Source: Candidatus Bathyarchaeota archaeon
GTDB lineage: Archaea > Thermoproteota > Bathyarchaeia > Bathyarchaeales > Bathycorpusculaceae
Direction of reading: 5' to 3'
DNA length: 64,000 bases
Assembly (NCBI GenBank): GCA_963768425.1
Contig: CAVYHV010000030.1
Coordinates: 64,001 to 128,000, forward strand
The notes under the pieces are model-generated. The model saw only the letters and a program-made list of their open reading frames with translations, was not told the origin of the DNA and did not search any database. Within the stretch, counting starts at the first letter, position 1; every line of letters starts with the position of its first letter. Of this stretch, positions 43,486 to 54,425 are shown in pieces. The position numbers were made by a program, and so were the translations under genes.

Positions 43486-43540
43486 GGTCAAGAAACTTTG
43501 ACTAAATTCAGTCAAGGAATTTTTACGAATAGCCTTTTAT
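43486..43540 (+). promoter_or_regulatory. Triple-box repeat + TATA, copy 1
   Basis: GGTCAA-gaaact-TTGACT-aaattc-AGTCAA, 19 nt, TTTTAT. Confidence 0.85.
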
Positions 43541-47389: not shown

Positions 47390-47444
47390 AGTTAAGAAAG
47401 TTTGACTTAGCTTAGTCAAGAAACCTGTACAAGAACGCTTTTAT
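47390..47444 (+). promoter_or_regulatory. Triple-box repeat + TATA, copy 2
   Basis: AGTTAA-gaaagt-TTGACT-tagctt-AGTCAA, 19 nt, TTTTAT. Confidence 0.85.
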
Positions 47445-47469
47445 CGGCAGACTAATTCCAAACGTTGTT

Positions 47470-48118: not shown

Positions 48119-48173
48119 AGTCAAGAAACCTTGACTAAGCCCGGTCAAGAAATCAGTACAAGAGAGCTTAAAT
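48119..48173 (+). promoter_or_regulatory. Triple-box repeat + TATA, copy 3
   Basis: AGTCAA-gaaacc-TTGACT-aagccc-GGTCAA, 19 nt, TTAAAT. Confidence 0.85.
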
Positions 48174-48177
48174 ATAA

Positions 48178-49029: not shown

Positions 49030-49084
49030 AGTCAAGAAACTTTGACTTGCCACAGTCAATAATCCTTAACGAACAGGCTTTTAT
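49030..49084 (+). promoter_or_regulatory. Triple-box repeat + TATA, copy 4
   Basis: AGTCAA-gaaact-TTGACT-tgccac-AGTCAA, 19 nt, TTTTAT. Confidence 0.85.
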
Positions 49085-49109
49085 CGCCTGCACTTGCTTA
49101 ACACTAAAC

Positions 49110-50028: not shown

Positions 50029-52932
50029 TCAATAATTTCTAATTAAAATTGATGTGAGACAAGCGGGCATTTTTGGTTTTCTCTCTCTGACAAATATAAT
50101 CGATAACAGTATTACTGTTGCAAGAAGTGGCAGAATTATCAAAGTTGGAAACTCTGGAACGATTGATGTCTGTGACCCAAACGTTATGACTACGGTGTGG
50201 CTACTGTGATGATAAGTAAAACTTATTAGCCAAACATTTCCCTCCGAAATGGAATTATAATTAATTGTTCCGCCGTCTAAGGTGACGTTGAGTTTTGAAA
50301 TATCTGGGATGAGGGATTGCGGAACGCAAACTTCAGTAAACCCGGTTGTTCCCGAAGGTCCAGAAACGCCAAAGCTTAATTCGTTTGTTGTTGAGTCAAA
50401 CGTTAGGCTTGTAAGCGTTGAGTTTGAAGTAACGGAGAATACGTTTTGATTTTGGCTGTTGAAAGGTTCTATTGCAAAGTTGTATACTGCACTTGCACTT
50501 GAATAGTCGCTGTCACCTGACCACGTAGCTTCGATGCCATAAAAACCTGAGACAGAGGGATTCCACACGCAAGAAAAGTTTCCGTCATTGCCAGTTTTTA
50601 AGTAAGCTAAGTCTTGCCAAGTTGCTCCTCCCGTGACGCTGTCAGAAAGCTGAATTCCAGCATCAGGCAAGCCTGCTCCGTCACCTGTTAATGAACCTTG
50701 AATTTGAACGTTAAATCCAGAGGTTGTCGTGGAACTTATGCAGACGAATGATAAGTTCGGAGATGGCAGATTTGATGCTGGTGTTGGCGTTGGAGTCGGA
50801 GTTGGAACTACGGTTGGTACAACTGTTGGGGTTGGCGTGGGAGAAGGCACATTGTTTGCCCAATACGTATCACTAACATCGACTAATCCAATGCATCCTG
50901 GATTGCTGCTTGCCGCATCAAATAATGTATATACGTTATCTCCAACTACTATGATTCCGGGAGACCCTACTCCGTTAGTGTCCCAAATGTATTGTCCGCC
51001 GCTTAAGTATGGCTCTGATGGATATGCATCCCAATGGATAAGGTCAGAACTGTAATACCAATAAATCACTGGTAGTGGACCTGCAAAAAGGGTAGCTTGC
51101 ATGAAATACAAGTTAGATGTAGGAACTGTAAAGACGTCTGAAGTTTCTATTGAATATGATGCCGTTAAAATCGGTGCCGAACCATAAATTGTCCATCCAT
51201 AAGGAAATGACGAAGCAGATGTTGTAGCTAACAGAACTTGGCCGTTTCCATCTACGAAATACATGTAGTATGTGCTTCCGACAAGAATTACAGATGGGTT
51301 AAAAATGCTGCTGCTTCCAGCCCAATTCGGCGGAGAAAGAATTGGATTTTCTGAGTATTTAGTCCATGCCGAAGTTGAGTTCAAACTACTTACTGGACAA
51401 GTGGCTAAACCAATGCTACTGTATCCTCCACCAACTTCAGAACCATAAAACATGTACACGGTACTTCCATTCACGATTAAACATGGAGCTGAAACTCCGT
51501 TAGGATTTTCCCAAGATTGTGTTTGTGTGAGAACTTGTCCAATTACAGTCCATGTTTGTAAATTGGTGCTTTGCGCTAAACCTATAGTCCAATTTCCAGA
51601 AGATTCTTCTCCCGTAGGTGTGGCGCTGAAAGACATGTAATAAGATCCGTTAGCGTAAATGACAGAGGGGTCTTTCACTCCACTGAGATCAAAACTGTCT
51701 GTTCCCGTAAACACAGGACTTGTTGAAACAAAAGTTAGAGATGATGGAGGTGTTGGGGTCACTGGTGAGGGAGTGGGTGTTGGAGAGGGACCAGGCGAAG
51801 GACTAGGCACGCTAGGAATGTAGACAGGAGCTAGCGGATTACTTGAATTTAAGAATGGAACATAATTAACCGTTCCCAAATTCAAATTGTCTTTGAAGTC
51901 ATAAATTTTTTGGCTAATTGCCTGTGAATCATTTGTTCCCCACCAATTGTAAGTAGCATCAATATTTGAGTTAACACTTCCAGCCAGTAAGAAATTATAA
52001 TTTGAGTTGTTATAGATGTTGTTACCAGAAATCAAATAGCTGACCGACCCACTATACGAGCCTATGAAAACTCCATCAGTATTATTGCTGATTGTATTGT
52101 TTTGAGTGATTATCGTAAATGGATTATAGTTGCCGTACAAATCCAGTTCAATTCCGCGAGTATTATCAAAAACCAAATTCTCCTGTATCAAAGATTGAGT
52201 GGTATACTCCGAATTAGCAGTAGCATAAATCCCCATGTAAGAACCAAACACCAAGTTGCCGTAAACGGTTGCATTTCCTAGGAGATAAATTCCAGTGTAG
52301 CGAGCAGCGAAAACTGTGTTATTGCAAATAGTTCCTCCACTGGCCGTAATTTGACCCTCTACGGTGTTGTTGGAGATTATTGGGGCCGCTATTCCTTCGA
52401 CATTAATTGCATCATTGTTACTTACTTGGTTAGTGCAATAAATTGTATTATTGTCTAATTTTGGTGAAACCGAATCTATCAGTATAGTCGGATACAGCTC
52501 CCATGTGGAAGTGATAAATGCGTTCTCAATTATGCTTCCAGATTTTGTTGCATCATTCCAACTTAGACTACTGCCCTCAAACTCAATTGCTCCATCTCCA
52601 CTACCAGCCCCATTGGGTATGTTAAACACTATGTTATCACTCGACGTGCCTGTAGCATTTAACGTACCGTTTACTCTCAGGTAATATCCATTAAAATTGA
52701 CTGTGACTCCCGGCTGAATCGTAAGCATAACGCTATTATTGACAAGTACATTTCCAACAAGCAAATATGGGCTACTTGCTTGCGTCCACATAGTGTCTGA
52801 GCTTATTATGCCACTTACGTTCGTACCGCTTTGAGCCTTGCTAAAATGGACATAAGTAACTCCAACCATCGTGGAAACTAATAATGCCACGATTAATGCC
52901 AGTGCTAATGCGCTTCTTTTCATAAGCACCAA
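50029..52932 (-). CDS. 967-aa mosaic surface protein: beta-helix + glycoside-hydrolase-like beta-propeller + Ig-like + PEF-CTERM
   Basis: WTQASSPY, I.NN.I repeats, DATYNWWG, PT linkers, DPSVI..GSYYM / WTKYSENPIL repeats, VPEFP-TM-RERK. Confidence 0.85.
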   Translation of the reverse strand: MVLMKRSALALALIVALLVSTMVGVTYVHFSKAQSGTNVSGIISSDTMWTQASSPYLLVGNVLVNNSVMLTIQPGVTVNFNGYYLRVNGTLNATGTSSDNIVFNIPNGAGSGDGAIEFEGSSLSWNDATKSGSIIENAFITSTWELYPTILIDSVSPKLDNNTIYCTNQVSNNDAINVEGIAAPIISNNTVEGQITASGGTICNNTVFAARYTGIYLLGNATVYGNLVFGSYMGIYATANSEYTTQSLIQENLVFDNTRGIELDLYGNYNPFTIITQNNTISNNTDGVFIGSYSGSVSYLISGNNIYNNSNYNFLLAGSVNSNIDATYNWWGTNDSQAISQKIYDFKDNLNLGTVNYVPFLNSSNPLAPVYIPSVPSPSPGPSPTPTPSPVTPTPPSSLTFVSTSPVFTGTDSFDLSGVKDPSVIYANGSYYMSFSATPTGEESSGNWTIGLAQSTNLQTWTVIGQVLTQTQSWENPNGVSAPCLIVNGSTVYMFYGSEVGGGYSSIGLATCPVSSLNSTSAWTKYSENPILSPPNWAGSSSIFNPSVILVGSTYYMYFVDGNGQVLLATTSASSFPYGWTIYGSAPILTASYSIETSDVFTVPTSNLYFMQATLFAGPLPVIYWYYSSDLIHWDAYPSEPYLSGGQYIWDTNGVGSPGIIVVGDNVYTLFDAASSNPGCIGLVDVSDTYWANNVPSPTPTPTVVPTVVPTPTPTPTPASNLPSPNLSFVCISSTTTSGFNVQIQGSLTGDGAGLPDAGIQLSDSVTGGATWQDLAYLKTGNDGNFSCVWNPSVSGFYGIEATWSGDSDYSSASAVYNFAIEPFNSQNQNVFSVTSNSTLTSLTFDSTTNELSFGVSGPSGTTGFTEVCVPQSLIPDISKLNVTLDGGTINYNSISEGNVWLISFTYHHSSHTVVITFGSQTSIVPEFPTLIILPLLATVILLSIIFVRERKPKMPACLTSILIRNY

Positions 52933-52993
52933 TCGCTAATACGTTTAACTTTCTCTAATGTTTTGTGCTGTAGGCTATTTCTAGAGCATTGGG

Positions 52994-53043
52994 ATAAAAG
53001 GCTATTCGTAAAAGTTTCTTGACTGGGTTTAGTCAAAGTTTCT
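52994..53043 (-). promoter_or_regulatory. Triple-box repeat + TATA, copy 5 (inverted; first box displaced to 54327-54331 by the IS)
   Basis: Minus strand AGAAACTTTGACT-aaaccc-AGTCAAGAAAC-TTTTACGAATAGCCTTTTAT; the tail is identical to copy 1. Confidence 0.88.
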
Positions 53044-53099
53044 CTTATGTAAGGAAACGATCGAAGGCCAAACCAAACAGACTTCCGACTACCTTTCTA

Positions 53100-53267
53100 C
53101 TTCACCCATCCACACTTAAATTTCTTTCACCAATGTATTTCAGACAACATTCTCTTATCAGCGAACAAAGTCGCACTACGGCTTCAGCTAACAGCCAAGG
53201 AAAACTCCATTCTTGACCAAGCAGATAAACTGCAGCAAACTTTAGAAGACATCCCAAGCTGCCCGTC
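53100..53267 (-). ncRNA. Putative bridge/seek RNA (ends approximate)
   Basis: Two guide-hairpin-guide loops, one matching the target repeat and one matching the IS end junction (see findings). Confidence 0.78.
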
Positions 53268-54257
53268 CTACTTTACCGTGAAATCCCGCTCATAAGTCCA
53301 AACAGCCCAAACCACATTCACCAACTTACGAGCAACAATCTTAATCGCATCCTTGCTATTGCCTTTCCTAACACAAGCATCTCTAAACACAGCCGCCAAA
53401 TGACCCTCTGGACAAAACCTAACATGAGACCAAGCAGACTCAATAAAAATACACTTAAGCCAACAATCACCCCTCGCTTCTTTTCCAGCAAACGAATGCT
53501 CACCAGACTGACTCACCCTCGGCACCAACCCAGCATAATGCGCCAACTTCTCAGCACTGCTAAATCGTTTAATATCGCAAATCTCCGCATACAACGTCAA
53601 AGCCGACAAAAAACCAATTCCTGGTATGGTCATAAGCAGCTCAACAGGCTTAATCTTTCCATATTTCCTTCTCAGCATGGCTTCAATTTTCTTAGTCTGC
53701 TCAGCCATAACATCCAACAGTTCAAGGTTCTGCTCAACCTCAAAAACGCCAAGATCAGAAGCTTCCCTTCTTCCCTTCAAAGTCCCCAAATTAACATCAA
53801 GACTAATATCTCGCTTCCTAAACTCGGAGCGGGTCCTATTCTTAACACTTGTAGACAACTTTGTTCTATACGACCGATGTCTTAGCAGGTTCCTAAGCCA
53901 CCGCAACTCGCTGGGAGGAACATAACAGGTTGGCAACCAATTCATCCTCACTAAATCAGCCAACAACTTACTATCCACACGATCAGTTTTAACATCTTCT
54001 GCACGATATTTCACTTTCACCGGATTCGCCAGCAAAGGCTCAAACTCTAATTCATCCAAAAAATCAATCCAAGGCCAACAAAAACCAACCGATTCCAACG
54101 CCACCTTACTGCCTTTAGGAACATTCTCTAAAGACGTTCGCAATTCAGCTCTACTTGTCTTAATTCTCTCTGTTTTTACTATCTCACCATTCACTTTCAT
54201 TATTGTTACCTGAGTATTCTTCAGGTGAACATCCAAACCAACCACCACATCGCTCAA
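53268..54257 (-). CDS. IS110-family DEDD recombinase/transposase
   Basis: VGLDVH, ALES, KTDRVDS, TIPGIG, YAGLVP..SQSG, ARKL. Confidence 0.95.
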   Translation of the reverse strand: MSDVVVGLDVHLKNTQVTIMKVNGEIVKTERIKTSRAELRTSLENVPKGSKVALESVGFCWPWIDFLDELEFEPLLANPVKVKYRAEDVKTDRVDSKLLADLVRMNWLPTCYVPPSELRWLRNLLRHRSYRTKLSTSVKNRTRSEFRKRDISLDVNLGTLKGRREASDLGVFEVEQNLELLDVMAEQTKKIEAMLRRKYGKIKPVELLMTIPGIGFLSALTLYAEICDIKRFSSAEKLAHYAGLVPRVSQSGEHSFAGKEARGDCWLKCIFIESAWSHVRFCPEGHLAAVFRDACVRKGNSKDAIKIVARKLVNVVWAVWTYERDFTVK

Positions 54258-54425
54258 CTTCTCCTACCTCCGATATCACTACTGGCTTATCGGAGGTCTA
54301 CTTAGAAAATCCTTTACATCCCGTCTTGACCAAGATTAGTTTATTTCTACTATCAGATTCAAGACTTTCGAATAAATTATGTTTCAACAAATGGATAGAT
54401 TTCTTTTTGCGAAATGCAAAAAACG

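Follow-up and report, generated by a model that had tools for sequence, protein, structure and literature searches.

The stretch analysed here, called the window, is a 64,000-nucleotide (nt) piece of the genome of a Candidatus Bathyarchaeota archaeon (GCA_963768425.1, contig CAVYHV010000030.1, positions 64,001 to 128,000), and it contains on its minus strand an insertion sequence (IS) of the IS110 family, which splits the promoter of a gene for a 967-amino-acid (aa) protein (Table 1). The element carries an open reading frame (ORF) for a transposase or recombinase, has non-coding ends of 67 nt on the left and 226 nt on the right, and holds in the right end, beginning at the transposase stop codon, a predicted RNA with segments that match the flanks of the insertion and the ends of the element. 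RNA-guided insertion of this type was first described in bacteria in 2024. The features described below make it very probable that this is an IS110-family element of IS1111-type layout which uses a predicted bridge RNA, with a target loop and a donor loop, as its guide.

The protein gave two Pfam matches above curated cut-offs, DEDD_Tnp_IS110 (PF01548, E 1.9e-18) in the N-terminal and Transposase_20 (PF02371, E 9.8e-21) in the C-terminal part, that is, a DEDD RuvC-like domain together with a Tnp domain, the latter with GLVPRVSQSG at residues 243-252; the Pfam search of the transposase gave no HUH domain. An alignment of 19 homologues (58-93% identity) shows no change at D9, E55, D88, D92 or D95 and keeps S251 in at least 90% of the sequences; within the catalytic set, the assignment of the first D and of the E comes from invariance only. 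The only solved relatives are the recombinases of IS621 (PDB 8wt6, E 1.7e-7) and ISCro4 (E 2.6e-7), and within an alignment limited to residues 62-318 the catalytic motifs KTDRVD and GLVPRVSQSG fall on KTDTVD and GLTPRRYESG of IS621. The TTG start codon is common to homologue L012. The first-pass annotation, made from the letters of the window, had called the element archaeal and IS1111-type; the first assignment held, and the second is supported by the layout. The host is archaeal by its archaeal signal recognition particle RNA (146.5 bits, cut-off 96.5) and archaeal RNase P RNA (191.4 bits, cut-off 84), and among named records the nearest copies of the element are in Bathyarchaeia or Bathyarchaeota bins, with more distant ones in an Aenigmatarchaeota and a Hadarchaeota bin. 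The transposase domains are those of the IS110 family, and the short left end, long RNA-bearing right end and subterminal repeats are IS1111-like.

The extent of the element was read from its junctions. In element orientation the left junction is ...AATCTTGGTCA-AG-A|CGGGATGTAAAGG and the right junction is ...CCTTACATAAG-AG|AAACTTTGACTAAACCC, the right element end being CATAAGAG (53042-53049) and the left one carrying ACGG, with subterminal inverted repeats of 9-10 bp, including one indel, placed 4 and 5 nt inward of the core. TCT on the plus strand, which had been proposed as the core, is indeed present at both window junctions (53041-53043 and 54324-54326), but homologous copies show a shorter conserved core. 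AGA occurs in 57 of 61 distinct left junctions (L016 reads AGA; the variants include AAA in L019 and AGT in L079), but the 46 right junctions differ in the base 3' of their AG (28 with A, 10 with G, 6 with T, 2 with C). Only two bases, AG as read along the element and CT on the plus strand, make up the conserved core, and the third base A was assigned to the left end of the element because it varies after the right-hand AG and is part of AGA at the left junctions; the window copy alone cannot reveal a 2-nt core, since the target also has A at this place. The element ends at 54324 and not at 54334 as first read, the latter position including 8-10 nt of flank depending on the left core copy, and this boundary agrees with the homologous copies. 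When the flanks were joined in silico they gave an intact box resembling uninterrupted copies, with the short AG core at both junctions and no long target duplication, and metagenome contigs matched the promoter up to 53043 and then continued into an uninterrupted box, TGAC[CT]AAA, of other promoter copies.

The RNA was studied through its homologues, collected as 17 loci from species-representative genomes and 74 from metagenome contigs, which together with the window make 92 sources. The donor-loop motif was recognisable in 55 of them (the rest are mostly contigs ending before the 3' end, or more divergent copies), and after leaving out 3 truncated RNAs and 6 identical to another, 46 distinct RNAs were aligned, their sources being archaeal genome bins, most of them of Bathyarchaeia, and metagenome contigs that carry no label. 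RNAalifold gave 28 consensus pairs, 19 of which are changed on both sides in at least one sequence, arranged as an outer stem, a long second stem, and a closing stem with a distal hairpin for each of loops 1 and 2. Standard pairs fill 95.7% of cells; shifting the 3' partners by 1-3 columns lowers this to 35-49%, and 0 of 500 column shuffles reached the observed pairing. In the target-loop hairpin, columns 48-51 pair with 60-63 in every cell, with both-side changes in three of the four pairs; in the donor-loop hairpin, columns 116-119 pair with 127-130, and an A-U pair becomes G-C in 14 of 46 sequences. Three pairs are G-U in 23, 21 and 26 of the 46 sequences, and because many pairs are G-U the structure would exist only on the transposase strand. 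No Rfam family was found for this RNA: at gathering thresholds the whole window gave two tRNAs and nothing else, and 53000-53320 gave only chance-level matches (E at least 2). The alignment thus describes a predicted two-loop bridge (or seek) RNA in which each loop is split by a hairpin.

The guide strings of the first-pass annotation were all found where it had put them. In the target loop, the 3' guide TTGGTCAAGA recurs exactly, as a 10-mer, at the left flank (54324-54333), and the right flank AAACTTT has its reverse complement, AAAGTTT, in the 5' guide; in the donor loop, CCGU and AUAAGAGA match the two element ends. That this is a target-loop and donor-loop design was then weighed on the homologues, with the conserved subterminal repeats, and not the loops, used to fix the element ends, with guides taken from fixed alignment columns, and with three rows that repeat an insertion already in the set (L036, L039, L077) left out. 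On the left side (39 insertions) the 3' guide matched its cognate flank at a mean of 5.31 of 7 positions, against 2.40 for non-cognate flanks, with at least 5 of 7 in 35 of 39; on the right side (48 insertions), where the 5' guide was compared in reverse complement, both contiguously and with one base skipped after the core, the mean was 5.5 of 7 against 2.80, with at least 5 of 7 in 40 of 48. When flanks were permuted among loci 20,000 times, no permutation gave a mean as high as the observed one, on the left or on the right; the guides of homologous copies thus covary with their flanks, which the first-pass annotation had proposed to test. The 1/7 of L020 arises only because its junction AGAG leaves the boundary ambiguous; shifted by two bases it gives 7/7.

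The guides are diverse, with 29 left-guide 7-mers and 37 5' guides; in 25 and 31 of these classes, respectively, every member matches at 5 positions or more. Guide and flank change together, as in AAAGTTT/AAACTTT (window), AAGGTTT/AAACCTT (L013) and AACTTT/AAAGTT (L016), and in L017 ACAAAAATCT pairs with AGATTTTTGT at 10/10 positions. The donor side behaves likewise: in 48 of 49 insertions the right element end recurs unchanged as the 3' donor guide (the exception, L037, is one base off), six donor-end variants each occur with a matching guide (ATAAGAG, ATAGGAG, ATAAAAG, AGAAGAG, ATAGAAG and ATACGAG), and at its variable base the 5' donor guide agrees with the left end in 32 of 39 cases (CCG with CGG, CCA with TGG). 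Read in this way, the guide variety among homologues is apparently a natural reprogramming of the RNA.

Table 1. Features of the element, its predicted RNA and its target in the window
Feature	Position	Strand	Basis or remark
Insertion sequence, IS110 family	53042-54324	minus	1,283 bp including right-hand AG core copy; junction reading
Left-hand core copy	54325-54326	minus	Junction reading
Left half of target, TTGGTCA + core AG	54325-54333	minus	5' half of promoter box 1
Right half of target, AAACTTTGAC...	53026-53041	minus	3' half of promoter box 1
Left subterminal inverted repeat, ATGTAAAGGA	54310-54319	minus	Conserved in homologues
Right subterminal inverted repeat, TCCTTACAT	53047-53055	minus	Conserved in homologues
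Transposase/recombinase ORF, 329 aa, TTG start	53268-54257	minus	Pfam and homologue alignment
Predicted bridge (seek) RNA core	~53142-53268	minus	Outer stem GGAC to GUCU; RNAalifold consensus
Target loop 5' guide, AAAGTTTGCT (RNA AAAGUUU-G-CU)	53234-53243	minus	Complementary to top-strand core + right flank AG/AAACTTT
Target loop distal hairpin, GCAG-UUUAU-CUGC	53221-53233	minus	Alignment pairing
Target loop 3' guide, TTGGTCAAGA (RNA UUGGUCAAGA)	53211-53220	minus	Equals left flank + core + first element base
Donor loop 5' guide, CCGU-A-GU (CCGTAGT)	53175-53181	minus	CCGU complementary to left end ACGG
Donor loop distal hairpin, GCGA-CUUUGU-UCGC	53161-53174	minus	Alignment pairing
Donor loop 3' guide, TGATAAGAGA (RNA UGAUAAGAGA)	53151-53160	minus	AUAAGAG equals right end + core
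Fifth window box pair, occupied by the element	boxes 53008-53041 (with TATA-like 52993-53041)	minus	Motif scan
Intact box 2, GTCAAGAAACTTTTAC; TATA-like, CCTTTTATC	53008-53023; 52993-53001	minus	Upstream of 967-aa gene
967-aa protein gene	50029-52932	minus	Promoter split by the element
Other window box pairs with TATA-like string	43487-43540, 47391-47445, 48120-48175, 49031-49085	plus	Motif scan

By analogy with IS621 and with ISEc11, ISPa11 and ISKpn4, the element would excise as a circle with the junction CATAAG-AG-ACGGGATG, the donor loop would hold this junction and the target loop the genomic site TTGGTCA-AG-AAACTTT, and the recombinase would exchange strands at the AG/CT core.

The site into which the element has inserted belongs to a promoter with two boxes 24 nt apart, in the order box 1 GTCAAGAAACTTTGAC, 8 nt, box 2 GTCAAGAAAnnTTTAC and then the TATA-like GAAnAGCCTTTTATC, followed some tens of bases on by a start codon. 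Genome-wide, 19 tandem box pairs (23-25-nt spacing, at most 6 mismatches in total) were found against 0 in the reversed genome, and a TATA-like string follows 17 of the 19. In exact form, the 13-mer GTCAAGAAACTTT was counted just 4 times in 2.96 Mb of genome. The repeat, which had been thought abundant, is a promoter element of modest copy number. The element splits the centre of box 1, the distal box, in the same orientation as the 967-aa gene, leaving box 2 and the TATA-like string intact. The same two-box architecture flanks homologous elements in other Bathyarchaeia bins, which sit in box 1 (L013, L016, L028, L032) or in box 2 (L031, L072, L073). Left junctions ending in GTCAAGA with at most one mismatch number 10 of 63, the window included, with L016 as an eleventh, and right junctions starting with a AAACTTTGAC-like half number 6 of 51. 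These junctions, together with two fragments in the same genome that abut GTCAAGA (see below), bear out the suggested specialisation on this repeat. Other sub-lineages target purine runs or hairpin-forming sequences, e.g. GAAGAAG...CTTCTTC. Judged from the insertion sites, the apparent natural target of the window sub-lineage is the centre of the palindromic box GTCAAGAAACTTTGAC, which stands in tandem 5' of a TATA element.

Genes 3' of the box pairs include those for a NosD/beta-helix protein and the 967-aa protein. The latter has weak Pfam matches of glycoside hydrolase (GH) type (GH32/GH32N, GH43, GH130) and a sub-threshold immunoglobulin-like match, and its translation, inspected by eye, shows a hydrophobic segment at the N terminus, linkers rich in Pro and Thr, and a hydrophobic anchor at the C terminus; it is predicted to be a surface protein. 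A single transcription factor that controls genes for surface or secreted proteins probably has the box pair as its operators.

Besides the complete copy, the same genome contains two truncated 5' fragments of related elements (C6:173375-173839 and C28:19278-19553), 77-79% identical in DNA, which contain stop codons and lack the RNA region; the one on C6 lies within box 2 of a different two-box promoter. In one other Bathyarchaeota bin, full copies on three contigs (L012, L018, L022) carry the guide set GTAGAAGA once and TTGAAAGA twice, which suggests that differently programmed variants coexist in one genome, because each of the three sits at a matching site. The RNA model R1 had matches in 3 of 151 sampled genomes of the class, the window's own included, and this patchy spread is not evidence of absence because the sampled genomes are bins. 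Scans with R1 of ISHvo10 (L108), of an IS110-family locus of an E. coli plasmid (L107) and of a second IS family in the window's genome (L008, L009) gave no significant match, the best E being 0.68.

A second IS110-family element with the same layout was observed in the window's genome at C14:43451-44676 (minus strand) and C13:102543-103554 (ending at the contig end), its protein being 33% identical to that of the first. Its subterminal repeats are TATGGGAAGT/ACTTCACATA and its core is apparently TG. In the non-coding region on its 3' side lie AGACTGA, which is left flank plus core, GTTTTTCACA, which is nearly complementary to the right flank, and ATAGGTGT, which is the right end; in both copies the right flank is the same hairpin-like AAAACTCAAAT[CT]GAGTT.

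Two further parts of the window element were observed to be conserved. Just 5' of the TTG start, a hairpin CCTCCGAT...ATCGGAGG (54267-54296, minus strand), kept in nearly all homologues, carries the ribosome-binding sequence GGAGG in its 3' arm, and it probably blocks translation from read-through transcripts. In the right end past the RNA (53113-53123 and downstream) there is a conserved A-rich stretch with a TATA-like TTTAAG, then GAGGTGA, and a conserved hairpin near the element end (53061-53088, minus strand); these features within 53061-53123 could act as an outward or junction promoter, belong to an extended RNA or be bound by a protein.

A number of points weigh against an RNA-guided element as the reading of this locus. 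The genome has a single complete copy, and no orphan RNA copy was found there; circle junction and empty site of the same locus were not seen in metagenome contigs of four runs; and none of the listed sequencing runs is on record as RNA, the best DNA runs sharing at most 0.37 of the sampled words. Folding of the single sequence, one of the checks proposed by the first-pass annotation, did no better than shuffles: the energy of 53119-53275 (minus strand) was -37.3 kcal/mol, and shuffled sequences averaged -37.47 (z 0.05). Such a value is expected because the RNA consists mostly of large internal loops, and therefore the homologue alignment was used, in which the fold is supported. Insertions are not independent events, as kin share guides and targets, and the permutation test is conservative because this sharing raises the non-cognate background. 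Pairing of the 5' target guide needs a one-base bulge (G) in the box-targeting sub-lineage, and is contiguous in L017; discontiguous guide pairing has been described for the right donor guide of IS621 (available portions of PMC11208160). The 5' donor guide places A opposite C in 7 of 39 insertions (CCA with CGGC). The guides of L060 match neither flank, and the guide-flank matches of L041 and L049 are weak. Finally, one RNA is common to L057, L080 and L082, but their three right flanks are unrelated to one another and none of them matches the 5' guide, and where left flanks are readable (L057 and L082, AAATTAAGA) they match the 3' guide; this pattern may reflect relaxed right-side recognition or later rearrangement. 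In the identical element of these three loci, the reverse complement of the 5' guide was also seen to resemble the left flank.

A more far-reaching reading, which we consider unlikely as a whole, is that the element represents a deep-branching archaeal lineage of bridge recombinases with one sub-lineage naturally programmed against the operator-like box of a conserved Bathyarchaeia promoter, where it would act as a regulon-specific promoter disruptor or rewirer; an outward-facing TATA-like module in the right end would take over or modulate the surface-protein gene, and the element's own expression would be gated by the hairpin hiding the ribosome-binding site. Somewhat less likely again is that the window copy is an inactive relic of a true IS110-family insertion, its RNA not made or its recombinase defective, so that the matches merely record a past insertion. 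The lone full copy beside two truncated fragments with stop codons, the TTG start codon and the lack of an RNA-type run among the sequencing runs listed would all suit such a relic, but the ORF is open over 329 aa with all invariant catalytic residues kept, the target guides match the flanks perfectly (7/7 and 10/10), both donor matches are intact, and the TTG start is also found in homologue L012. Highly improbable is a third reading, in which the guide segments would work as DNA, single-stranded or duplex, pairing with the target as in IS200/IS605: none of the listed runs is of RNA type and guide-flank covariation would look alike for a DNA guide, but the many G-U pairs in the stems fit the transposase strand only, the recombinase gave no HUH domain in the Pfam search, and the protein family has been shown to use RNA (available portions of PMC11208160 and PMC11187229). 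That the matches are due to chance or are a by-product of low-complexity A/T-rich flanks can hardly be credited, for although several target classes are purine runs (AAAAAAG, GAAGAAG) with ambiguous register and inflated non-cognate matches, 0 of 20,000 flank permutations on each side reached the observed match in a conservative test and six donor-end variants each have a matching guide.

The preferred reading, an IS110-family element with a predicted bridge RNA, can be set beside systems already known, for which the portions of the cited papers that were available are followed here. IS110 elements have bridge RNAs, and in the IS1111 group the RNA lies in the right end and has been predicted in 93.0% of IS1111 entries (PMC11208160); the traits of IS1111 seekRNA elements include a downstream non-coding region, subterminal repeats and a GL-P----S(t)G motif, with the top-strand match 5' of the bottom-strand match (PMC11187229). 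The window element resembles this group (ISEc11, ISPa11, ISKpn4, ISPst6; PMC11187229, PMC11208160) in its DEDD recombinase with the GL-P----SG motif, in its subterminal inverted repeats (7-17 bp in the group), short left end and long RNA-coding right end, in having the top-strand-complementary guide 5' of the bottom-strand-complementary one (PMC11187229), and in insertion into a repeated palindromic host sequence. Its 329 aa are borderline against the 330-350 aa of IS1111 proteins, and the likeness to IS1111 rests on layout and motifs. Unlike the IS1111 examples, the window element is archaeal, with close IS relatives in Bathyarchaeia bins, and its target is a promoter operator-like box, not a repetitive extragenic palindromic (REP) sequence, attC site or transposon end as in the examples given in those portions; its protein is at most about 33% identical to any plasmid-borne relative found, and its RNA has no Rfam family and was not matched by R1 outside its own clade among the loci scanned.

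With IS621 (PDB 8wt6) it shares a two-loop RNA having in each loop one guide per strand, overlapping a dinucleotide core with CT on one strand. It differs from IS621 in that the RNA lies in the right end, downstream of the gene, and not in the left end, upstream; the guide order within the loop is reversed, the core is AG on the coding strand, and protein similarity is weak (E 1.7e-7). Archaeal IS110 recombinases are already known, 662 having been counted (available portions of 10.1101/2024.06.21.599552). Haloarchaeal IS110-family elements were the best full-length matches among those listed from the plasmid collection, unnamed ones reaching about 33% identity, and ISHvo10 of Haloferax volcanii pHV4 (31% identity) was the only specifically named family among them; almost all other names in these matches are the generic 'IS110 family transposase', so that they give no sorting into IS1111 and IS110. 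ISHvo10 has long non-coding regions on both sides (PMC11187229). The window element is unlike ISHvo10 and the haloarchaeal elements in being distant from them, and R1 finds nothing in ISHvo10. ISPpu9 and ISPpu10 (PMC12288879, available portions) are likewise of the IS110 family, with a small RNA gene 3' of the transposase and a repeated palindromic target, but they are bacterial and their target is an extragenic REP sequence, not a promoter box pair. In the literature we found no paper pairing 'Bathyarchaeia' with 'IS110' and no explicit archaeal bridge RNA, although the element lists supplementing PMC11208160 and PMC11187229 may include archaeal members.

Taken together, the comparison supports placing the window element as a very divergent archaeal member of the known bridge-RNA type of insertion sequence, with an unusual promoter-box target. 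For genome engineering, the first-pass annotation had foreseen a new programmable system; the orthologue is indeed new and very divergent, but it is one more of a system type already known and not a new principle. The natural reprogramming series, with 29 left-guide, 37 right-guide and six donor-end variants, points to loop positions that are free to vary in the clade. Since the box appears to be the natural target of the element, it is likely to be a real, conserved cis-element in these archaea, and bridge or seek RNA recombination would, at the level of sequence evidence, extend to an uncultured archaeal lineage.

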